From positions 128,001 through 192,000 of the forward strand of contig JBEKYR010000001.1 in assembly GCA_049510745.1 (NCBI GenBank): a stretch of DNA of 64,000 nucleotides. Reading direction: 5' to 3'. The stretch is from Verrucomicrobiota bacterium. GTDB taxonomy: Bacteria; Verrucomicrobiota; Verrucomicrobiia; Limisphaerales; Palsa-1400. Below the pieces are notes generated by a model. The model was not told the DNA's origin and did no database searches. It was given only the letters and a program-made list of their open reading frames with translations. Shown here piece by piece: positions 311 through 64,000 of this stretch (position 1 is its first letter; every line of letters begins with the position of its first letter). The position numbers were made by a program, and so were the translations under genes.

Positions 311-619
311 TTGGCCTCAAGCGAAACCAAAGAGGAGATTGCCGCAAAAGATCACAGAGATCACAAAGAAAAGAATATAAGTTACTGACTATGTGCGCTT
401 TACCTGTTCATTTGTGGCAAAAATCCTCTCAACGCGGCAAACCTTTTCGGGAGAGCCTCGCAAAGCGGCGTCCGCCTGCGCGTGAGGCAGGTTCCTTCCG
501 GCCTGGGGTGCCTGCGCCCGTGGTGAGGCGGCATGGGGCGTGGCCCTGCGGCGAGGGAAAGGACCAAGCCCCGGCAACTCCAGCCTTCGCTCAAGGCGAG
601 CTACGGCTGGCAGGCCAGT

Positions 620-700
620 TTATGTCAAACAGCGAGTCCTCGCCTTGGTTCATAGTCCCATGTTTTCCCATGATTGCAAGCATTTTTTACTGGATAACAG
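620..700 (-). promoter_or_regulatory. Putative extended -10 promoter with downstream boxA-like motif (copy 1 of 3)
   Basis: Minus strand: TTGCAA(679-674)-N16-GACTAT(657-652) with TG extension, then GCTGTTTGACATAA (633-620); same spacing as copies at 15419-15510 and 63672-63765. Confidence 0.55.
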
Positions 701-774
701 GCGTGAGGTAACGAGGGGGACGTCGCTGCGGCCCATGCAGAGGTCTCGTCGTCGTTTGTCGCCGCAGTCACAAG

Positions 775-847
775 GATCATAAGCAATTGTAGCGCAATCG
801 CTTGCACTTAAAGTTGGAGAAAACTACGGTTTGAGCCTGGTGACGAC
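775..847 (+). promoter_or_regulatory. Putative sigma70 promoter TTGCAC-N17-TACGGT (element C, copy 1 of 3)
   Basis: TTGCAC 802-807, TACGGT 825-830; homologous to 60093-60136 (+) and 63376-63446 (-); upstream GATCATAAGCAATTGTAG shared with the 63.4 kb copy. Confidence 0.6.
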
Positions 848-914
848 CTGTGAGATAAACGCAAAGGGCAAAAGACGCCAAGACTTAGCGCGGCAAGCCG
901 CAACCAAAGGAAGG

Positions 915-1075
915 CGACCACGGATCGCACGGATCGCAGAGATGAACAAATTATCGGGAAGACAAGTGAACAAATTGTCGGGCTGACGCTGGCGCGTGGG
1001 CTGGCGCGTGGGGATAAGAAGCGACGGGTTTTCCATCCGTGAAAATCCGCGGAATCCGTGGTAAGAAACTTTCCC
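915..1075. repeat. REP/MITE-like palindromic interspersed repeat (CCACGGAT...ATCCGTGG type)
   Basis: Imperfect inverted ends; inverted copy with internal deletion at about 15645-15750 and partial direct copy at about 15880-15948. Confidence 0.75.
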
Positions 1076-1113
1076 GAAAATGAATGATTCTGAGGCATGG
1101 CACTACCGCAAAA

Positions 1114-1282
1114 AAGCCAGCTTTGCTTTGCGACTTCGCGTCCTACGCCCCTTGCGTTTCGTCTGGTCCGTTCCGGGTGCCGCGGGATCGGGGGAGGTTA
1201 AGGAAACCGGGACAGACCGGCCCAACGCACCGATGCCGCAAACCACCCAGAAAATACAAATTTCCTAGGCCTGACCCTTTTC
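1114..1282 (+). repeat. Conserved ~165-170 bp non-coding element A ending CCTAGGCCTGACCCTTTT
   Basis: Near-identical inverted copy at 63191-63355; diverged partial copy at 63513-63600. Confidence 0.9.
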
Positions 1283-1392
1283 ACTTTCAAGAAACCTGAT
1301 ACGAATAAAGCACCTCAGAGTGGCTGGTTTTGATTCGACCCCAACTGGCTCGTTTTGAAGTGACCGGTGACAGGATTATTATGCAGGTTCGT

Positions 1393-2418
1393 TTATGCGC
1401 GAATCGCATACACAATAATGGAGATGATGAGGATGGCCACCACCGAAAACAACAAAATGGTGGCGACAACGTTGTCAGGGTTATTTTTTGATTTTTTCGC
1501 CAAACTTGGCTGCATCGGCCCGCTGGACGATTTGTCGGTTATAACTGCGCGACGTGTTGTCATATCTACAACAATATGCCCTTCAAGCTGCCATTGCAAT
1601 TTCCCATCTTTATCTTTTGTCATCTGCGGAAACGCGGTGAACGGTTCCGCTTGGTATCCAAATTGGACGGGCTGCAAACGCAAATCCCAAAGTTGCGCAT
1701 TTACCTCCTTTGGCGTCACACCGATAGCAGTACGCTGCCCCGTCATCCAATTCTCATCTACCACAAGATTAGGCACCGTTGCAAAATTACCGGGCAGCAT
1801 ATCTGGGATCGGGCAATCGCACGTTATCCAATCAGGAGAATCACTAAGCCTGTCCTCGAACCAAGGCGGGTTGAATTTGAGCTTGAGACTTTTTAAGACA
1901 GTTACCTTTATAGTCCCTTGTTTAATTTCGTTGGATGAGATGTTTTTTAATACAAATTCTGCTTTGATATTTGTGGTGCCTGGAACTACCGGCACTATCA
2001 CAAATCCCTTTACTTCCTCATCCTCAATCGCCACCCTGTTGAGCCTAGACGAAAAATCAAACCGTGGATCGGTGAGCATAAGCGGAAAGCCTTTGGATTC
2101 GGAGAGAGCAAAGCCTAGTTCTAAACTTGGACGGCTGGGTGAAGGCAGCGCGGATTTGCCCCACTCCAACCAACAAAGAAGCGAGCAGAAAAGTAATGCA
2201 AAGGCAATTATCGAGTCTCCCCACCTTTTTGCTGGTTTAGGCTCAGTGCCGGTGTTAATAAGCTCTGCCTCCAGTGCTTTTCCGCAGCAAAATAGTGCTC
2301 CAAACGCGAAGCATATCGCCAAAGGAATTGCTCTATGAAGATCATACAAAATACCACCGGCAAATCCGAAAGCAGCAAAAACCGAACCACACACAATAAT
2401 ATTTCTTGGATACTTCAT
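1393..2418 (-). CDS. Hypothetical membrane protein (AT-richer cargo gene)
   Basis: 341-aa ORF with ATG start, three N-terminal hydrophobic helices and one C-terminal helix; composition visibly lower in GC than neighbours; no recognised family. Confidence 0.6.
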   Translation of the reverse strand: MKYPRNIIVCGSVFAAFGFAGGILYDLHRAIPLAICFAFGALFCCGKALEAELINTGTEPKPAKRWGDSIIAFALLFCSLLCWLEWGKSALPSPSRPSLELGFALSESKGFPLMLTDPRFDFSSRLNRVAIEDEEVKGFVIVPVVPGTTNIKAEFVLKNISSNEIKQGTIKVTVLKSLKLKFNPPWFEDRLSDSPDWITCDCPIPDMLPGNFATVPNLVVDENWMTGQRTAIGVTPKEVNAQLWDLRLQPVQFGYQAEPFTAFPQMTKDKDGKLQWQLEGHIVVDMTTRRAVITDKSSSGPMQPSLAKKSKNNPDNVVATILLFSVVAILIISIIVYAIRA

Positions 2419-2593
2419 ATCGGGCCTTTTGGTTTCGGCATATTATTTTTCGCTGGGTTCCTGTGTGGATTTATTATTGGGTGCGCCGTTTCTCGTTAGA
2501 ATTTCAACTTTTTTTATAATGGCAACACGTTTTACAGGAAGTAAATTGCACGAGTTAAGGGTGCGTCAGTTAAGTGGAAAGCCCGTAGAAGAA

Positions 2594-2642
2594 AAAAGGG
2601 TCAGAGAAGAAAAAAAAGGGTCAGTCCTAGGATATTGGTATT
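2594..2642. repeat. Doubled AAAAGGGTCAG end motif, inverted relative to 1250-1282
   Basis: AAAAGGGTCAG (2594-2604) and AAAAGGGTCAGTCCTAGGATATTGGTATT (2614-2642); same doubled layout at 63163-63220. Confidence 0.8.
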
Positions 2643-2728
2643 CAATCATTTTGAGAAACCAGCCAGTCCAGCATAATCGCATATTATCGTTTTCTTTCCA
2701 GATCCCGCAGCGGGCCGGGGCGGCTGGC

Positions 2729-2760
2729 TTCCGCCGTCGCTAAAGCTATGGCGGACAGGT
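2729..2760. repeat. REP-like palindrome TCCGCCGTCGCTAAAGCTATGGCGGACAGG
   Basis: Imperfect hairpin; related sequence at about 581-615. Confidence 0.55.
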
Positions 2761-2832
2761 GGTTGCTCCTCGGTTGCAGATTTCTTTCGTGCTTTAAAAG
2801 GTCACCAACTTCAGGCCTATTGCGCTGGCTAA

Positions 2833-2845
2833 CCAGGTAGATCAT
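2833..2845 (-). pseudogene. Probable 4-codon stub (MIYL) of a deleted PIN/VapC toxin
   Basis: ATGA overlap with the antitoxin stop; reads M-I-Y-L like VapC 'MIYLD' starts, then the similarity ends. Confidence 0.4.
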
Positions 2846-3075
2846 CCCTCGCCTCCGCGCGCGTCCGCCACAATCTCGCTCAGGGATTTGCCGGGGGGAT
2901 TTTCGCCCCAAACAGCTTTGGCCCGGCGGACGAAGTCCGGTTGCGACGCGCCAGCGGGCACGAGTTTGGCAATCACCTTGTCGTGGTCAGTCATCTGAAC
3001 TTCTTCCCCAGACGCCACCCATTTCAAGATGTCCGGCCATCGCTCCGGCACTTGCTGAACGGTTGCTGTTTTCAC
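2842..3075 (-). CDS. Phd/YefM-family (prevent-host-death) antitoxin
   Basis: GTG start; KTATVQQV...ILKWVASGEEVQMTDHDKVIAKLVP pattern typical of Phd/VapB antitoxins; 77 aa. Confidence 0.8.
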   Translation of the reverse strand: MKTATVQQVPERWPDILKWVASGEEVQMTDHDKVIAKLVPAGASQPDFVRRAKAVWGENPPGKSLSEIVADARGGEG

Positions 3076-3163
3076 GAGGCCAAGATAGCTCCCCGCCGGT
3101 CGGCGGGCAAGAAAGCATTTCGGAAGCGGCGAAACCCGCATATCCGTTCCTAATCTTAACGCA

Positions 3164-3196
3164 CCGTCTTCCTCTCAGGAAGAGGAAAAAGGCCAA
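3164..3196 (+). repeat. 33-bp hairpin element B
   Basis: CCGTCTTCCTCTCAGGAAGAGGAAAAAGGCCAA; 29/33 identical to the reverse complement of 60148-60180; TCTTCCT-CTC-AGGAAGA stem. Confidence 0.8.
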
Positions 3197-57347: not shown

Positions 57348-57430
57348 TCTGCAATCATGGTTGCCCGGCGTATTCGGCGGTCACCGCCCTGAATTTGATT
57401 CGCCCGCCTCCCCCGCCATGCCAATCGCCT
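57345..57430. repeat. Direct repeat copy 1 (~87 bp) flanking the TA module
   Basis: Matches 57990-58076 with 5 substitutions and 1 indel. Confidence 0.92.
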
Positions 57431-57447
57431 TCCGCTTGTTCACAAAC

Positions 57448-57744
57448 TTAAAATAGTCTCCGGCGAATCGCCTTTGGATCCTGCCGCAGATCCAAGACCG
57501 CCGCGATGATGATTCGCGACGCTTGCACCTGGTAGAAAATACCGTACGGAAAGTCCCGGATCAGCATACGGCGATACGGACCACCATAAACTGGCGCAAT
57601 TTCAGGGTGCCGCCGCAGAAGACTCAACGCAGCATCCAATTGACCCATAAACAGTTCACCCCGGCCGGCCTGATAATCTTCGTAACGATTAAATGCCGCC
57701 TGAATGTCAAGATCGGCCTGCAGCAGCAGGAGAAGATCGATCAT
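57448..57744 (-). CDS. RelE/ParE-family toxin
   Basis: ADLDI...YE...G..F...P...RRMLIRDFPYGIFY...AVLDLRQDP. Confidence 0.9.
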   Translation of the reverse strand: MIDLLLLLQADLDIQAAFNRYEDYQAGRGELFMGQLDAALSLLRRHPEIAPVYGGPYRRMLIRDFPYGIFYQVQASRIIIAAVLDLRQDPKAIRRRLF

Positions 57745-57965
57745 GACCGTGGGCCGAGGATTCGCTCCTTGACCGCTTCCCAAGTGGTGAATTGATCTGG
57801 ATGCTGGCGAAAGTGCTCCATCCGACGGTCCAATCCCTCGATGATCTCGCGCGCGACGGGCACTTGCGAGGGATTGGCCTCGAGATCGTTCCACAGTTCC
57901 GACACAAACATCAGCTTTTCTGAAGCGGAAAGCCGCTGCACCTCCGGAAACTTCTCAAGAATCAT
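57741..57965 (-). CDS. Addiction-module antitoxin component
   Basis: LSASEKLMFVSELWNDL...LDRR...TWEAVKERI; ATGA overlap with the toxin. Confidence 0.9.
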   Translation of the reverse strand: MILEKFPEVQRLSASEKLMFVSELWNDLEANPSQVPVAREIIEGLDRRMEHFRQHPDQFTTWEAVKERILGPRS

Positions 57966-57989
57966 GGGCCTAATATAGCGGTTCGCGAC

Positions 57990-58076
57990 CATTCTGCAAT
58001 CATGGATTGCCCGGCGTAATTGGCGGTCACCGCCCTGAATTTGGTTCGCCCGCCTCCCCCGCCACCCCAATCGCCT
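57990..58076. repeat. Direct repeat copy 2, includes the 3' end of the dehydrogenase gene
   Basis: Matches 57345-57430. Confidence 0.92.
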
Positions 58077-59283
58077 CAATATGCCCGTCGCTGGTCAGCA
58101 CGTAAAGTTCCCCGTCCAGGTCTTGCGCGAAACTGGTGATGTTTTTCGGCTGGTCCAGCAGCGTGCCGTATTGGGTCACTTTGCCGTGCTTCCACCGAAA
58201 TCCCCAAATGGTGCCCAGGGCGTAGTCGCCATAAACATAAATCCCGCGCAAGGCCGGATGCTTTGCCCCCCGATAAACATACCCGCCTATCACGCAGGCC
58301 CCGATGCTGTGATGACGAAACTTCGTCTCCGCCAGAAGATTCGTCTTGTGCGGATACTCGATCACCGGCTCAACGTAGCGCGCCCCTTCGGGACCGGGTT
58401 TGAAATGGTGCGCCCCTTCCCGCACGCTCCAGCCGTAGTTGCCCCCTTTGACAATCAAGTCTATCTCCTCCCATTTGTCCTGGCCCACGTCCCCCGCCCA
58501 CATCTCCCCCGTCGCCCGGTCCCAACTGTAACGCCACGGATTGCGCAGCCCATAAGCCCAGATTTCCTTCCGCGCGCTGTTCTCCCAAAAATCCGGCTCG
58601 CGCATGAAGGGATTGTCCGCCGGCAGACCGTAAGGCAGCGTCTCCCGCGCCCCGCGCAGGCCGATGACCGACCGGCTGTCAACGTCGATGCGCAGGATTT
58701 TGCCCTGCAACGCCGAAGTGTTTTGGCCAGTCCCGAATTCATCATTCTGCCCCCCGCCGTCGCCCACGCCGAGGTAGAGAAAACCATCGGGGCCAAAACT
58801 CGCCAGGCCCCCCTTATGCACCTCGGACGGCTGCGGAATCTCCAGCAAAATGTGCTCCGAATTGGTGTCCGCGCGGTCGGGATTGCCGGCGGAAACTTTC
58901 ATTTCACTGACCACCGTGCGCCGCGGATTTTGCTGGCAGTAGAAAATGTAAAACAGCCCGTTGCTGCTGAAACGCGGATGAAACGCCAGGCTCAACAACC
59001 CCTGTTCCAGCGAAGCGTGCGGTTTGCGGTCCTCCAAGTTGAGAAACTCCCGCGCCTCCGCCCCATCGGTCCCCTTGCGCGCCAGCATCACGCGCCCGCC
59101 CTGCTCCACGATGGCGCAGCGCCCGGAGCCATCCGGCGCCTCCTCCATCCAAACCAGGTCACTGCATTGCAACCTGGGAAAAACCGGGCGCAGCGTAATT
59201 TTGGGAAGCGGCTGGGCCACGGCGGCAATGGCTGCCAGCAGCGCGAACAGCGCCTGGCCAAAGATGATTAACCGCCGGTTCAC
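58027..59283 (-). CDS. PQQ-dependent sugar dehydrogenase family protein (GSDH/YliI-like)
   Basis: EQGLLSLAFHP, FGPDGFLYLGVGDGG, GKILRID, YGLRNPWR, GGNYGW, GGYVYRG; signal peptide. Confidence 0.92.
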   Translation of the reverse strand: MNRRLIIFGQALFALLAAIAAVAQPLPKITLRPVFPRLQCSDLVWMEEAPDGSGRCAIVEQGGRVMLARKGTDGAEAREFLNLEDRKPHASLEQGLLSLAFHPRFSSNGLFYIFYCQQNPRRTVVSEMKVSAGNPDRADTNSEHILLEIPQPSEVHKGGLASFGPDGFLYLGVGDGGGQNDEFGTGQNTSALQGKILRIDVDSRSVIGLRGARETLPYGLPADNPFMREPDFWENSARKEIWAYGLRNPWRYSWDRATGEMWAGDVGQDKWEEIDLIVKGGNYGWSVREGAHHFKPGPEGARYVEPVIEYPHKTNLLAETKFRHHSIGACVIGGYVYRGAKHPALRGIYVYGDYALGTIWGFRWKHGKVTQYGTLLDQPKNITSFAQDLDGELYVLTSDGHIEAIGVAGEAGEPNSGR

Positions 59284-59350
59284 CGCGCCCAAGGTGGACT
59301 ATTCCACCCCAAAGTTCAACCCGTCTTCGGCGCAGAGTTTCCGACTCCCA

Positions 59351-59611
59351 TTACGCGGCGACAACTTGCACGCGGGGGGCAAAACCAAGCCTGCCGAGAA
59401 GCTCCTCACAATCTTCCCAGGCGAGCCCAAACGCGCGAACATCCGCAACTCCAAGCCGGGCAATCACGTGGGAAAGCGTCTCGGCGTCGCGCTCGGCCAA
59501 CTCGCCGTCCATTAAGGCGCGCTCCGCCCAATCCACCAACTGATCCAGCGTGATCTCGTGATGAAGGTACGCGGCAATCTGTTCGGCAACGATTTGTTTC
59601 GTGATCGTCAC
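59351..59611 (-). CDS. Small helical hypothetical protein (putative antitoxin-like)
   Basis: 86 aa, GTG start, YLHHEITLDQLVDWAE; follows a truncated upstream ORF. Confidence 0.7.
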   Translation of the reverse strand: MTITKQIVAEQIAAYLHHEITLDQLVDWAERALMDGELAERDAETLSHVIARLGVADVRAFGLAWEDCEELLGRLGFAPRVQVVAA

Positions 59612-59620
59612 GGCATCATC

Positions 59621-59725
59621 CTACACTTTCTGGTGGCCTTTATCCACCGGGAATTTTTCGTGCGTCTCGACCAACCGCCCCGCGTCATCATAAATCTCCT
59701 GCCAGAAGCGCAGCGTGGTTTCCTT
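59621..59725 (-). pseudogene. 3' remnant of an upstream partner gene
   Basis: My translation KETTLRFWQEIYDDAGRLVETHEKFPVDKGHQKV* is protein-like and stops 10 bp before the next gene; 5' part missing. Confidence 0.55.
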
Positions 59726-59830
59726 CCGGAGTTTGGCGGCCGGGTGTTGCGTGTGGTGGTAAACAAGACGGTTGTTCCCGAACGGGTCGTGACTGTATAT
59801 TTCGACCGCACAATGAAAGGCAAACTATGA
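59723..59830 (+). pseudogene. 3' remnant of DUF4258-like toxin
   Basis: LPEFGGRVLRVVVNKTVVPERVVTVYFDRTMKGKL* resembles DUF4258 C-termini; ATGA-coupled to DUF2283; N-terminus absent. Confidence 0.7.
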
Positions 59831-60027
59831 GATTGAAAGTTGACCGTGAAGCCGACGCGCTTTATCTCCGCTTGGACGACTCGCCAATCATCGAGTCCGA
59901 AGAGGTGTCGCCGGGCGTGGTGTTGGACTTCAACGGGCAAAATCAGGTGGTCGGCGTCGAGATGCTCAACCTCTCCAAACGCGCGCCGGGGCTTAATCTC
60001 AAGGAATTCCAGTTCCAAACGGCGTGA
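59827..60027 (+). CDS. DUF2283-family protein (putative antitoxin)
   Basis: DREADALYLRL...SEEVSPGVVLDFN...VVGVE. Confidence 0.92.
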   Translation: MRLKVDREADALYLRLDDSPIIESEEVSPGVVLDFNGQNQVVGVEMLNLSKRAPGLNLKEFQFQTA

Positions 60028-60092
60028 CACGTTCAGCTTCGGCGGCGGAAACCGTCCGGCCAGCTTCAAAGGGTTTTGTGCCGTAAAATCAC

Positions 60093-60136
60093 TTGCACTT
60101 AGAGCCGGACAATACTACGGTTTGACCCGGACGACG
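60093..60136 (+). promoter_or_regulatory. Putative promoter element C, copy 2
   Basis: TTGCAC 60093-60098, N17, TACGGT 60116-60121, TTGACCCGGACGACG. Confidence 0.6.
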
Positions 60137-60147
60137 CCCGCATAATT

Positions 60148-60180
60148 TTAGTCTTTATCCTCTTCCTGAGAGAAAGACGG
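60148..60180 (-). repeat. 33-bp hairpin element B, copy 2
   Basis: Reverse complement 29/33 identical to 3164-3196. Confidence 0.8.
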
Positions 60181-60212
60181 GGATTAAGGGCAAAACTGTA
60201 CCGTCAGCTACC

Positions 60213-62273
60213 TCAATAGACCAGCACCAGGGCCACGGCGCTTTCCGCCTCTCGCTCCACGTCCTCGAATTTCCGGTCTTTGATCGGATTCGGCTCCGGG
60301 AGTTTCGCCGATATTTCCGGCAGGCTTTCCAACAAAACGTTCAACACAGAGCTTTTCACGGCGTAATTGACGCTTTGCGGCAAAGAGCCGGTAGTTTGGA
60401 GTGTGGCCATGTCCGCAAGTTGCGCTGCCACAATGCCCACCACGTTTCCGTACTGGTTCACGAGCGGCCCGCCGGAATTGCCCGGTTGCACCGCCACGCT
60501 GATTTGAAACTCTCGCGGGTCATCCTGCACCCCGGCCAAACTGCTGATCTCGCCTTTGGTCAATTTGGGGGCGAAACCTTGCAATTCGATGTTCGGAAAA
60601 CCGATGGTAAAGACCGATTCGCCCAGCTTCACGCCACGACTCGAAGCGACAGGCAATGCGGGAAATTTGCCGATCACTTTCAGCAAAGCCACGTCGTTTG
60701 CCTTGTCCGCTTTCACGAGCGTTGCTGCGAATGTGCCCGCCGTCGTTCTTACGGCAATCCGGCCCGCATCCTCGACAACATGGTAACAGGTCAGCAGGCA
60801 ACCGTCATCAGTAACGAAAAAGCCGCTGCCGGTGAAGCGAGGCACGCTTCCAACCACAGCCGAATTTTGGCCATCGGCTCGATTTGAAGCAACGCCTTCC
60901 TTGCGAGCAACGAATTCGCGGGAAAGTCGCTGGCCTTCTGCAATCTGCGAAGGCGTCATGGAATCGGATATTCTATCGCGGTGGTGAATGGCGTTGGTCT
61001 GATTCTGTGCGGCAGCGAGGTTATACCACTTGTAAGCCTCGATATAATCCTGTGGTACGCCCTGGCCAACGTCATACATACTTCCAACAAGCAATTGTGC
61101 GTGGGCATTGCCTTGCTCAGCGGCCTTGCGGCACCACTTCACAGCTTCGGCGTCGTCTTGCGGGACGCCCTTCCCATAAATATACGCAAGGCCCAACTTC
61201 GTCTGTGCCGCTGCTTCGCCTTGTTCAGCGGCCTTGCGATACCACTTCACCGCGTCGGCGTCATCTTGCGTCACGCCCCACCCAAGCTCATACATCAGTC
61301 CCAGCTTGCCTTGCGCCTCGGCGAAGCCTTGTTCCGCCGCTTTGCGGAACCACTTCACGGCTTCGGTGTAATCTTGCGCGACACCCTGCCCTTTTTGGAA
61401 ACACACACCAAGGTTAAACTGTGCTGTCGCATTGCCTTGCTCCGCCGCTTTGCCGAACCACTTCACGGCTTCTGCCAAGTTGGTTGCTACACCCTGGCCC
61501 GTGGAATACGCATCGCCCAAAGCCGTCTGTGCCGTCGCGCTACCTGCCTCTGCCTTCGACTTGATTTCCTGAAACGAAATCGAATTGGACGACGGCGGAG
61601 TGGATGTCTGTTGGCCGTTCGTGTCGGTGCCAGCGGCTAGGGCGTGCTTAGGCTCAAGCCGGTCAAAATTCGTTGTGGGCTGGCTTGGCGTGTTCGTGTC
61701 CTGCCCCAGCGCCGGAAAGGAAATTCCTGTCCGGTCTTGTTTGATGCCGTACTTTGCCTTGAGCGACTGCCCAAGAAATCTAGCATCGAACGTGAAAAAA
61801 CCATCGGGCTTGGTCTGAAATCCCCTAATCAAAAGCCCTGTGCGCGGCCTGTAAATATGGTGGGTTATAGGCGGCATGTAGGTGGTACTCGAATTCACGA
61901 CTCCGCTCGAATTTCCAGAATAGCTGGCCCCGTGCGGGTTAAAATAGATGTCACCGGAAGTCGAGCCTGTTCCGCTTGATCTGGTCGTCGAGTACCCCGG
62001 TGTTGTAAAGCTGCTGACGGTCGTCGAATTGTTCTCGTCCACGATGGCGAAGAATGCGAAACCATGTTGGAGGGCAAGCTCAGATGCCCTCAACAGAGCA
62101 AAATCTTGTGCCCGCTCGCTTGAAGTATAACCATTGCCGCGAAACATCACCCTCACGGTGTCAGGCGCGTACCAAGTCTCTGAATACCCGCCCATCAATC
62201 CGTTTGATTTATAGGGCGTTTGGCAGCCTGTGAGGAGCGCAACTGCCATCAAGAGAGTCAGAGGAAGCTTCAT
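60213..62273 (-). CDS. Lipoprotein with SEL1-like repeats and C-terminal trypsin-like serine protease
   Basis: Lipobox LTGC; five A-Q-x-x-L-G...G-x-G-V...A-V-K-W repeats; triad LTCYHVV / NDVALL / PGNSGGP. Confidence 0.92.
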   Translation of the reverse strand: MKLPLTLLMAVALLTGCQTPYKSNGLMGGYSETWYAPDTVRVMFRGNGYTSSERAQDFALLRASELALQHGFAFFAIVDENNSTTVSSFTTPGYSTTRSSGTGSTSGDIYFNPHGASYSGNSSGVVNSSTTYMPPITHHIYRPRTGLLIRGFQTKPDGFFTFDARFLGQSLKAKYGIKQDRTGISFPALGQDTNTPSQPTTNFDRLEPKHALAAGTDTNGQQTSTPPSSNSISFQEIKSKAEAGSATAQTALGDAYSTGQGVATNLAEAVKWFGKAAEQGNATAQFNLGVCFQKGQGVAQDYTEAVKWFRKAAEQGFAEAQGKLGLMYELGWGVTQDDADAVKWYRKAAEQGEAAAQTKLGLAYIYGKGVPQDDAEAVKWCRKAAEQGNAHAQLLVGSMYDVGQGVPQDYIEAYKWYNLAAAQNQTNAIHHRDRISDSMTPSQIAEGQRLSREFVARKEGVASNRADGQNSAVVGSVPRFTGSGFFVTDDGCLLTCYHVVEDAGRIAVRTTAGTFAATLVKADKANDVALLKVIGKFPALPVASSRGVKLGESVFTIGFPNIELQGFAPKLTKGEISSLAGVQDDPREFQISVAVQPGNSGGPLVNQYGNVVGIVAAQLADMATLQTTGSLPQSVNYAVKSSVLNVLLESLPEISAKLPEPNPIKDRKFEDVEREAESAVALVLVY

Positions 62274-62291
62274 ATTTTTAATTTGTTAGTT

Positions 62292-63074
62292 TTAGTCTTC
62301 CGACGGCTCAGACCCGTCTCCCCGAAGTGATTGATATTCCATCTTCGTAAGGTTGACGATTTCTGAAAGCTGCTGTAGGCGGTGTCTATTCTCCATCGCA
62401 ACCATATTTGTGATTTGCAGTTCCATTGCGTTTGCCTGCTCGGCAGATATTTTTTCTGGCCGCTTGCCTTGGCTTACAACAGCAAGCGAGGTTCCACCTC
62501 CGCAATACGCCACGGAACCCTTTGCCTCTTTCACCACGTAAGAGGCAATCAGCGTAGCTTGGTGGGAGGAAATTTGACCAAAAGGAAAGTCCTTGAGCAA
62601 GTAATGCGCGAGATCGCTGCCTATGCCGCTTGTGGAGAACTCGGCTGCGATTGGTTGCGGCCACGCGGTCATCGGTCGGAATTTAAAAAGAAATGCCTTG
62701 CCTGAAAAATAATATCCCAAAGTCAACTCGAAATCGTTTTGCTCTTGATAAAAAAAATCTTCCCAGTTTGTTGGCGACAGGCCGGGATGAAGGCTCGTCA
62801 TGTGGTTTCGGAATTCCAGAACCGCGTCTTTTGCAGCATTAGCAATCGTCCTATCGTCAGTGATTTCCCTTCCGGCGGCCTTTCGCTTAAACGAATCAAC
62901 CGCGATATTCGAGTACGTTGCTGCCCCTGCCTCCCCAACCAGCGCATATCCATTAAGGAATTCAATAATGCTAATTTTCTCTGTGCCGTGCTGCTTGGCG
63001 CTTCCCCGCGTTGTTTCGCTCTCGGCTCCAAAGACAATCGCGTCTTTGCAAATTATTCCAACAATTAAAGTCAC
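62292..63074 (-). CDS. Proteasome beta/HslV-like Ntn-hydrolase
   Basis: GTG at 63074 yields (M)TLIVGIICKDAIVFGAES...EKI, SGIGS, YCGG; alternative ATG at 63113. Confidence 0.75.
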   Translation of the reverse strand: MTLIVGIICKDAIVFGAESETTRGSAKQHGTEKISIIEFLNGYALVGEAGAATYSNIAVDSFKRKAAGREITDDRTIANAAKDAVLEFRNHMTSLHPGLSPTNWEDFFYQEQNDFELTLGYYFSGKAFLFKFRPMTAWPQPIAAEFSTSGIGSDLAHYLLKDFPFGQISSHQATLIASYVVKEAKGSVAYCGGGTSLAVVSQGKRPEKISAEQANAMELQITNMVAMENRHRLQQLSEIVNLTKMEYQSLRGDGSEPSED

Positions 63075-63162
63075 AGACTTTGCCTTTCGCTTAATTTTTC
63101 GGAAACTTCGCATGGTTAAGCCTCCAGACGCAAGTATATTATTGCCCTCGACAGCGGAAAAA

Positions 63163-63355
63163 GAAAAGGGTCAGGTCTGAAAAAGAAAAGGAAAAGGGTC
63201 AGGCCTAGGAAATTGGTATTTTCTGGATGTTTTGCCGGCATCGGTGCGTTGCGCCGGTCTGTCCCGGTTTCCTTAACCTCCCCCGATCCCCCGGCACCCG
63301 GACCAGACGAAACGCAAAGGGCATAGGGCGCGAAGTCGCAAAGCAAAGCTGGCTT
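63163..63355 (-). repeat. Element A copy 2 with doubled AAAAGGGTCAG end
   Basis: 63191-63355 is the near-identical reverse complement of 1114-1282; extra GAAAAGGGTCAGGTCT at 63163-63178. Confidence 0.9.
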
Positions 63356-63375
63356 CCTTGCAGTAGTCCGTCGTC

Positions 63376-63446
63376 CGTCGTCCGGGTCAAACCATACTAT
63401 TGTATGAATTTACGTGCAAGTGTTTGCACTACAATTGCTTATGATC
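63376..63446 (-). promoter_or_regulatory. Putative promoter element C, copy 3
   Basis: Minus strand TTGCAC(63419-63414)-N17-TATGGT(63396-63391)-TTGACCCGGACGACG; reads into element A and the cargo genes. Confidence 0.65.
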
Positions 63447-63671
63447 GTCGTCGTTTCTCCAAAAGTCACCCCGCTTGGAGCTTCTGCAAGCGTCAGGCCC
63501 GTGAACTCGGTGTTTTTGGGTGGGTTCCAAGCGTCGGCCCGTTGCGCCGCCTTGTCCCTGCCTCTTTAACACCCCCGGCTTCCCCAGCACCGAACCGACA
63601 AGCCTTGGTCGCCAGACGTGCCGGGCTGGCCCTTTGACTCGCGTGTCCGTCCATGTCCGTCCATGTTCCTC

Positions 63672-63765
63672 CTAAAAAAACCTGCAAAAAAGTAACAAAA
63701 ATACTTGCTAAATCACCAAACTGTGTCAGATTCGCCAACAGACGAGCACCGGCTCTTTGACATAA
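63672..63765 (+). promoter_or_regulatory. UP element + extended -10 promoter + boxA-like motif (copy 3 of 3)
   Basis: A-tracts, TTGCTA 63705-63710, N16, TG-n-CAGATT 63727-63732, GCTCTTTGACATAA 63752-63765. Confidence 0.6.
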
Positions 63766-63855
63766 AGTGGAGTCGCCGGGCAGCGGTCCTGTTCGCTCGC
63801 CGCAGGACGGGCTCCAGGCCGCCAGCGATGCCGTCATTCACGGCCGCCGCATGGC

Positions 63856-63895
63856 CAATCGTGCTAAATCGTGCCAAATCGTGCCAAATCGTGCC
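63856..63895. repeat. Four tandem 10-bp repeats AAATCGTGCC
   Basis: caatcgtgct aaatcgtgcc aaatcgtgcc aaatcgtgcc. Confidence 0.9.
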
Positions 63896-64000
63896 AAAAA
63901 AAGAAAAATCCCAACCACGATTGATGATCCATCAGATCTCACTTTAGCCTTTAGCCTTCGAGCCTTTCCCCCGTCGCTCCGAGCAGATTCGACCAAATTC

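Follow-up and report, generated by a model that had tools for sequence, protein, structure and literature searches.

In the available portions of the literature, TIRtrons and TIRYTs were named by Di Nocera et al. (2013, PMC3733652), who gave a GGGGWSAS consensus and described dispersed terminal inverted repeats (TIRs) in dimers and clusters. TIRYTs constitute TnpA_Y1 subclass 2.1, which carries NH[VYF]H and YxxxNP motifs, is reported in 14.9% of strains and belongs to the Y1 HUH enzymes, which cut single-stranded DNA and join it again (Quentin et al. 2018, PMC6006769). RAYT group 1, the equivalence of which to subclass 2.1 is stated in bioRxiv 10.1101/2020.03.09.984088, is the most insertion sequence-like of the true RAYT groups (Bertels et al. 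2017, PMC5581495). The tnpA_REP gene, also of subclass 2.1, has been linked to procA in picocyanobacteria, and its authors later saw no strong causal evidence for the link (Laurenceau, bioRxiv 10.1101/2020.03.09.984088). Here we consider a locus at 60087-63451 of a 64,000-nucleotide (nt) window from a Verrucomicrobiota bacterium (contig C1:128001-192000 of a 5.63-Mb assembly, 60.3% GC), in which two protease genes lie between repeats termed A, B and C. An initial annotation, made from the sequence alone, had proposed a container: a self-contained expression cassette with interchangeable cargo, enclosed by convergent copies of promoter C and by dedicated ends A and B. The explanation that we find reasonably probable is instead a pile-up of orphan TIRYT ends, of A-type and C-type, together with B as a remnant resembling repetitive extragenic palindromic (REP) sequences, around two horizontally acquired protease genes.

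Terminal repeats at the locus and in intact elements

Comparison of repeats and open reading frames (ORFs) found all the parts named in the initial annotation in place. C(+) at 60087-60136 and C(-) at 63376-63425 form an inverted pair, 82% complementary across 50 nt. B at 60148-60180 matches 3164-3196 at 88%, A at 63185-63367 matches 1102-1288 at approximately 90%, and the doubling of GGGTCAG is confirmed at 63168 and 63196. The BLAST E-values of these repeats range from 1e-7 to 1e-67; an Rfam scan of the window gave no matches. The cargo is AT-richer, as had been claimed, with a GC content of 0.532 between the tips versus 0.621 in window 3300-59500. A third, degenerate A copy that the annotation lacked, A2 (63490..63600, plus strand), stands in tandem behind C(-) and is 70% identical to A over 110 nt.

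In relatives, the C head (GGGTCAAACC..) and the A head (GGGTCAGGCC..) form the TIRs of intact TIRYT elements. C-type elements were sought among plus/minus 13-mer pairs about 1 kb apart (20 hand-picked stretches plus L083), and the C-tip 13-mer GGGTCAAACCRTA itself matched 248 times, in 24 of 31 family genomes, whereas its reversed control matched 10 times. Seven intact C-type elements of 1031-1037 nt were obtained, the TIR pairs of which agree at 18-24 of 25 nt, and two of A-type (1124-1125 nt, agreement at 23-24 of 25). A scan of the genome collection with the A head gave one locus, L026, where a Y1 gene lies between inverted heads matching over 24 nt and is similar to the intact copy of the source genome (E 1.5e-36); L033, from another relative, is a second A-type element. 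Against these TIRs the left C head of the window matches at 16-17 of 19 nt for six of the seven elements and at 14 for the seventh, the right C head at 15-18 of 19, and the A head at 17-18 of 19 nt in L033 and L045. With three G's, the window heads GGGTCAG and GGGTCAA are near to GGGGWSAS but inexact, the C-type also having A at the last consensus position; the fourth G is present in 73 of 87 C-type heads of relatives.

Inverted pairs of A-type or C-type repeats thus flank a Y1 HUH gene in nine elements of relatives. In eight of the nine, L045 being frameshifted, the protein has 312-338 amino acids (aa), long enough for the extended C-terminus of the subclass, and carries both NH[FY]H and Y[TVI]HLNP; those of C-type have 312-322 aa with NHFH and Y[TV]HLNP. 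All three element proteins scanned were over the cut-off for Pfam Y1_Tnp (PF01797), and three trimmed translations gave no Pfam match to a C-terminal helix-turn-helix at E 0.01. None of the nine elements has a direct repeat in its two 12-nt flanks, and several flanks mirror the TIR head. Longer queries were less informative: the 91-nt C sequence had no match in 30 family genomes, and an 18-nt C pattern, set aside as a probe, matched seven times in 400 phylum genomes, in a chance-like manner and never beside a TIRYT.

At the locus the tips face the cargo and the element insides point away from it, and there is no TIRYT gene between inward-facing TIRs. The left C copy (60087..60136) lies on the minus strand, where reading from its head leads away from the cargo; its TIR occupies about 60110-60128 with the tip at 60128, and directly outside stands the 8-mer CGTCGTCC (60129-60136), an identical word being found outside both window C tips. 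The right copy (63369..63451, plus strand) begins with a CGTC stutter (63369-63383), followed by its TIR (about 63384-63402) and a GTGCAA-N4-TTGCAC palindrome. The A module (63196..63367, plus strand) has its A-type TIR at 63196-63220, then a body of approximately 90 nt and a REP-like tail; outside its tip lies a stutter (63152..63195, plus strand), an A-rich run with a partial extra TIR head, the GGGTCAG at 63168. Twelve aligned copies of the A body in the genome are 70-92% identical, and the 25-nt A head is present at further sites as well. One A-type head, at C7:25554, is 70 nt upstream of a truncated ORF (C7:25484) starting MAGPLRIEYPGATYHIMA, a RAYT-like Y1 transposase N-terminus. The A body itself was considered as a TIRYT C-terminus and rejected, there being no likeness by eye and no tblastn match to the C6 TIRYT.

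Stutters like that of the window A also lie outside the TIRs of the intact elements L033 and L045. Among the 87 C-type ends of relatives, which are not independent because they come from related genomes, unevenly sampled, 17 have a further GGGTCA head in the 45 nt beyond the tip (2.0% at random), 22 have an outside word that is repeated (2.8% at random), and 29 have an RTCR word at offset -7 from the tip, versus 1-10 at other offsets. Both window C tips carry RTCR. The doubling of GGGTCAG is therefore a general trait of TIR tips in this family, and stutters and the preferred RTCR word outside the tips are family-wide. One other TIR family, with 30 heads, has an invariant G..TTG directly outside, which suggests that outside words may be specific to each TIR family.

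B (60148..60180, minus strand) is the worn core of a REP-like palindromic family of the form CTTAATC..CCCGTCTT..GAAGAGGATTAAG, and lies 33 nt past the stop codon of the trypsin gene. An nhmmer profile built from three copies gave 18 matches at 16 loci, three of them seeds. The hairpin on the mRNA strand is weak (-16.9 kcal/mol over 77 nt, a value without shuffle control). None of the 14 B loci outside the window is near any of the five C copies, the nearest pair being 21 kb apart (C45). B and C are thus unlinked elsewhere, which is one half of what the initial annotation had named as grounds for refuting its reading, and the idea of B as a dedicated end travelling with C is not supported.

TIRYT debris is widespread in the source genome. 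Y1_Tnp has seven matches in the assembly, none on contig C1; ten of 14 regular-expression rows represent TIRYT starts (four unrelated rows were dropped), a GGG[GT]C head being clear upstream of seven, and an intact TIRYT at C6 carries its own 24-nt TIR. There are 94 TIR heads of several families, with tandem stacks at C8, C76 and C38. Miniature or stacked derivatives of other TIR families were seen at C2:182697-182893, C4:262-362, C81:3085-3159, C3:114-600, C8:1088-1379 and C76:113-292. A separate observation is a 1222-aa ORF at C16:70076-73744, alanyl-tRNA-synthetase-like by its N-terminus, with an in-frame Y1_Tnp-like stretch.

Outward-facing tip pairs 300-8000 nt apart number seven in the genome, and six of them enclose DNA of 0.45-0.56 GC. 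Some bracket a single ORF tightly (386 nt at C6, 481 nt at C31 and 1340 nt at window 1277-2618), and in relatives seven of eight hand-picked outward pairs hold an ORF, ORFs in this survey being called by length only. The true boundaries of the containers of the window are therefore TIR tips. In the left container these are a pair of A tips, B standing 545 nt beyond them, and the cargo has the opposite orientation to that of the right container. This left-hand cargo, on the minus strand at 1393-2418, is read in the direction of the C-A end and is antisense to 'promoter C', which contradicts the fixed sense relation that had been proposed between cargo and C. What survives of the container is foreign-looking cargo between mobile-element ends that bracket other low-GC genes too; its promoter and cassette parts are not supported.

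The two protease genes and their surroundings

The first cargo gene (60213..62273, minus strand) encodes a Sel1-trypsin lipoprotein of 686 aa with five Sel1 repeats and Trypsin_2 (Pfam). It has a lipobox, LTGC, at residues 14-17, a CC0125/CC1285-family domain (NF047637, over the cut-off) and trypsin-like His/Asp/Ser motifs. The same architecture occurs in P0015 and P0017, and for this reason the idea that the gene is a local fusion was dropped. Neither A, B nor C matches at a paralog on contig C51, the protease domain of which is 89.6% identical at the DNA level. Variant Sel1 arrays at main-copy depth are carried by contigs L024:3957-5466, run X7 record 25 and run X2 record 10; the X7 contig joins the left flank of the locus to a variant array resembling the C51 paralog, and may be a chimera with that paralog or a recombinant allele.

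The second gene (62292..63113, minus strand) encodes an N-terminal nucleophile (Ntn) hydrolase of 273 aa from ATG 63113, with GGAGG 7 nt upstream, or of 260 aa from GTG 63074. Its match to Proteasome PF00227 is barely over the cut-off (23.6 bits), and it keeps Thr1, Glu17, a Lys33-equivalent and the SG motifs; the nucleophile position is Thr in ten of 11 family rows and Ser in one. A single-sequence fold reached a predicted local distance difference test (pLDDT) score of 40 and the alignment-based fold, at pLDDT 84.9, was used instead; Foldseek related it to Anbu 5nyg (E 3.9e-11, TMq 0.67). The protein is thus predicted to be a threonine protease of proteasome-beta/Anbu fold. Its family is small and patchy (11 matches; six of 31 family genomes), and none of eight other loci of Ntn homologs has an A, B or C match, or a Sel1-trypsin gene within 1.5 kb. 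Three more proteasome-beta-like genes, 28-34% identical to the cargo, lie in low-GC patches at C5:111749, C24:33234 and C12:88581.

The two genes are separated by 18 nt and are probably co-transcribed. Between the ATG of the Ntn gene and the A tip lie a TATACT and a GGAGG that belong to this gene. Transcription of the protease genes probably starts in the region upstream of them, and they would not need C as a promoter.

To the left, 57361-60027 is toxin-antitoxin debris, with a ParE-like ORF (57448-57894) between 70-nt direct repeats (57361, 58007) and DUF2283 at 59827-60027 beside an apparent truncated partner. To the right, at a distance of 2.6 kb, is a restriction enzyme of BsuBI/PstI type paired with a methylase (L024:10044-12550). 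A further repeat family, at window 63690-63960, accounts for 82 BLAST pieces on some 25 contigs; its layout is a promoter-like TTGC..17..(T/C)AnnnT, then GCTCTTTGACAT, then tandem 10-mers in variable number. Its copies often come next after an A or C module and share the direction of that module (C13, C41, C2 and window 615-645). GCTCTTTGACAT resembles an antitermination boxA.

Weighing the explanations

If the locus accumulated orphan ends, the following series of events could account for it. A Y1 enzyme, to go by HUH chemistry, would nick single-stranded DNA at a TIR tip and rejoin the tip to a short motif resembling it; repeated rounds of nicking and rejoining might produce the stutters and the stacked heads. 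Internal deletions would strip the TIRYT gene and leave gene-less ends, local hops or duplications could give near-identical neighbouring loci, and ends would tend to gather at lower-GC, recently acquired DNA.

Several observations weigh against this account. The 94%-complete assembly yielded no intact A-type or C-type TIRYT gene. The spacing of TTGCAC 17 nt from TAyGGT is kept in all four full C copies of the genome. Whole low-GC ORFs are tightly bracketed by outward tips, and gene capture would give the same pattern. Finally, for both A and B, the copy closest to that of one window locus (770-3196 or 60087-63451) lies in the other (92% for A versus 70-82%; four mismatches for B versus at least seven), and the two share three of the five C copies and the A-then-C order. 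The two window loci are thus not independent scars. Their likeness may reflect a local duplication or an old large unit. The two loci are inverted relative to each other and flank a 57-kb stretch of normal GC.

The strongest alternative, which we regard as possible on present evidence but unlikely, is TIRYT-driven capture, in which tips were joined to foreign single-stranded DNA at RTCR-type motifs and whole genes, enclosed in this way by a pair of outward-facing tips, became exchangeable, as in an integron without attC. The 3-kb stretch would then be one captured, or stepwise-built, cargo. Apart from the tight bracketing, the absence of flanking direct repeats in all nine intact elements and the flanks that mirror the heads look as if ends were joined singly; the identical CGTCGTCC outside both C tips points the same way, as does the lower GC outside than inside the tips in four TIR families of the genome (0.51-0.53 versus 0.55-0.60, n=6-22). 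However, the C-type tips of relatives barely differ in this respect (0.534 outside versus 0.541 inside, n=81), and the bracketing counts are without a control for independent insertion on either side of a low-GC gene. The innermost tips of the locus are not of one TIR family, that at 60128 being C-type and that at 63168 A-type, and the cargo families occur elsewhere without A, B or C ends.

Alleles speak against capture as well. A metagenome scan with a C-internal pattern gave six contigs, three aligned at 99.97-100% and three judged from a partial stretch, all of them copies of the genome's own three loci; none of the six holds an empty or swapped allele. No cargo-skipping joint was found among the 15 of 61 joints listed, from contigs of four of 24 runs. 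The comparison covered near-identical strains and no syntenic relatives; an empty site is undefinable in relatives because the GSDH loci of 12 of them, found through their GSDH orthologs, share no flanking gene with the locus; in this comparison L138 gave one distant Sel1/trypsin match. With no empty or alternative allele among near-identical strains, interchangeable cargo at this locus has no support from the alleles compared, though it may still occur. A broader form of the capture idea, in which TIRYTs (RAYT group 1) are gene-capture recombinases that attach single tips to short RTCR-type motifs of foreign single-stranded DNA, orphan ends are portable capture sites that swap genes, an HUH nuclease thus driving an integron-like system, and the window loci are two fillings of one duplicated A-C end, is speculative and we regard it as unlikely.

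We consider improbable the model of the initial annotation, a self-contained expression cassette with A and B as its dedicated ends, in which two convergent copies of C would act as sigma-70 promoters and give sense and antisense transcripts. It placed the -35 and -10 on the plus strand of the left C, at TTGCAC 60093 and TACGGT 60116. The spacing kept in four of four full copies, despite a varying spacer, favours it; a relaxed TTG[AC]-17-[TC]AnnnT also occurs upstream of the TIRYT genes of the genome, and the C2 copy is in sense toward a gene about 150 nt away. Yet the four C copies descend from one ancestor and are not independent. As the C heads match C-type TIRs, the '-10' TA[CT]GGT corresponds to ACC[AG]TA, an invariant part of the TIR, in reverse complement, and the '-35' TTGCAC is half of the GTGCAA-N4-TTGCAC palindrome. 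In relatives, TTG[AC] at 16-18 nt from the '-10' position was present in four of 87 distinct C-type ends, against a genome background of 3.9%. A strict sigma-70 scan of 59300-64000 found no promoter-like site (shuffles 2.5 +/- 1.6), and the relaxed pattern that C does fit matches 1381 times in the genome. Only two of the four full copies are in sense toward a gene (63384 and C2:149363), those at 60128 and 837 pointing antisense, and B is a general REP-like repeat. C as a dedicated promoter is not supported; an outward promoter of insertion-sequence style within the C lineage of this genome is possible but unproven, and would not turn the locus into a cassette.

The palindrome of C is found at window 63414-63429 and, in the genome, at C1:128792, C2:149392 and C45:14959, with TACAAT directly behind; it is not among the 87 C-type ends of relatives. 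Palindrome and TACAAT could be an operator or promoter part directed away from the cargo.

Chance repeats or mis-assembly of a repeat-rich metagenome bin can be dismissed as highly improbable, for although breaks in Logan contigs fall within the Sel1 gene and at repeats and the X7 contig joins the left flank to a variant array, the repeat E-values are low, the independent metagenome contig L018 reproduces the DNA of the right half of the locus (99.97% over 3274 nt), and L023 (5205 nt) runs from C(-) to the left flank, as judged from about 700 nt.

Comparison with known systems

Integron cassettes and composite transposons hold accessory low-GC genes between recombination-type sites, and the moving ends of composite transposons face inward. 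The locus differs from both, having neither an integrase nor an attC-like site, and its tips face the cargo. The 273-aa protein shares with Anbu and proteasome beta (5nyg, 5nyj, 1pma) the Ntn fold, at TMq 0.67, and Thr1-type catalytic residues, but is only 14-15% identical to Anbu.

REPtrons, that is RAYTs with REP-BIME or REPIN repeats, employ the same enzyme superfamily and likewise have repeats dispersed from the enzyme gene (available portions of PMC3333891 and PMC8266576), whereas the ends at this locus are TIRs of about 20-25 nt and not hairpin REPs; B is REP-like, yet a separate family without a demonstrated tie to TIRYTs. The association of tnpA_REP with procA is similar in that the enzyme is of the same subclass and has full and truncated copies next to accessory genes that vary, an arrangement for which it was proposed as the cause. 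It differs in having a single partner family and no inverted repeats, where the present locus has unrelated cargo and TIRs (bioRxiv 10.1101/2020.03.09.984088).

TIRtrons are the nearest match, with TIR heads of GGGGWSAS type flanking a Y1 HUH gene that carries NH[YF]H and YxHLNP, and with repeats dispersed as singles, dimers and clusters (PMC3733652, PMC6006769, in the portions available). The locus departs from them in having gene-less ends only, two stacked TIR families and tips that face a 3-kb cargo. Cargo between outward tips, stutters and an outside target word are undiscussed in the parts of the TIRtron literature covered (PMC3733652, PMC6006769, PMC5581495), and a literature search, subscription papers and supplements aside, found no study of cargo capture by subclass 2.1 or of its biochemistry. 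If the tips do capture genes, subclass 2.1 would be an unrecognised route of accessory-gene uptake. As it stands, the locus adds a further case to the debris left by TIRtrons, which have had their name since 2013, and its comparison with relatives has provided nine intact elements as cognate enzyme-TIR pairs for two TIR families, together with a measured outside-tip signature and stutter; with these pairs and signatures, the chemistry of the largest RAYT group can be put to the test.

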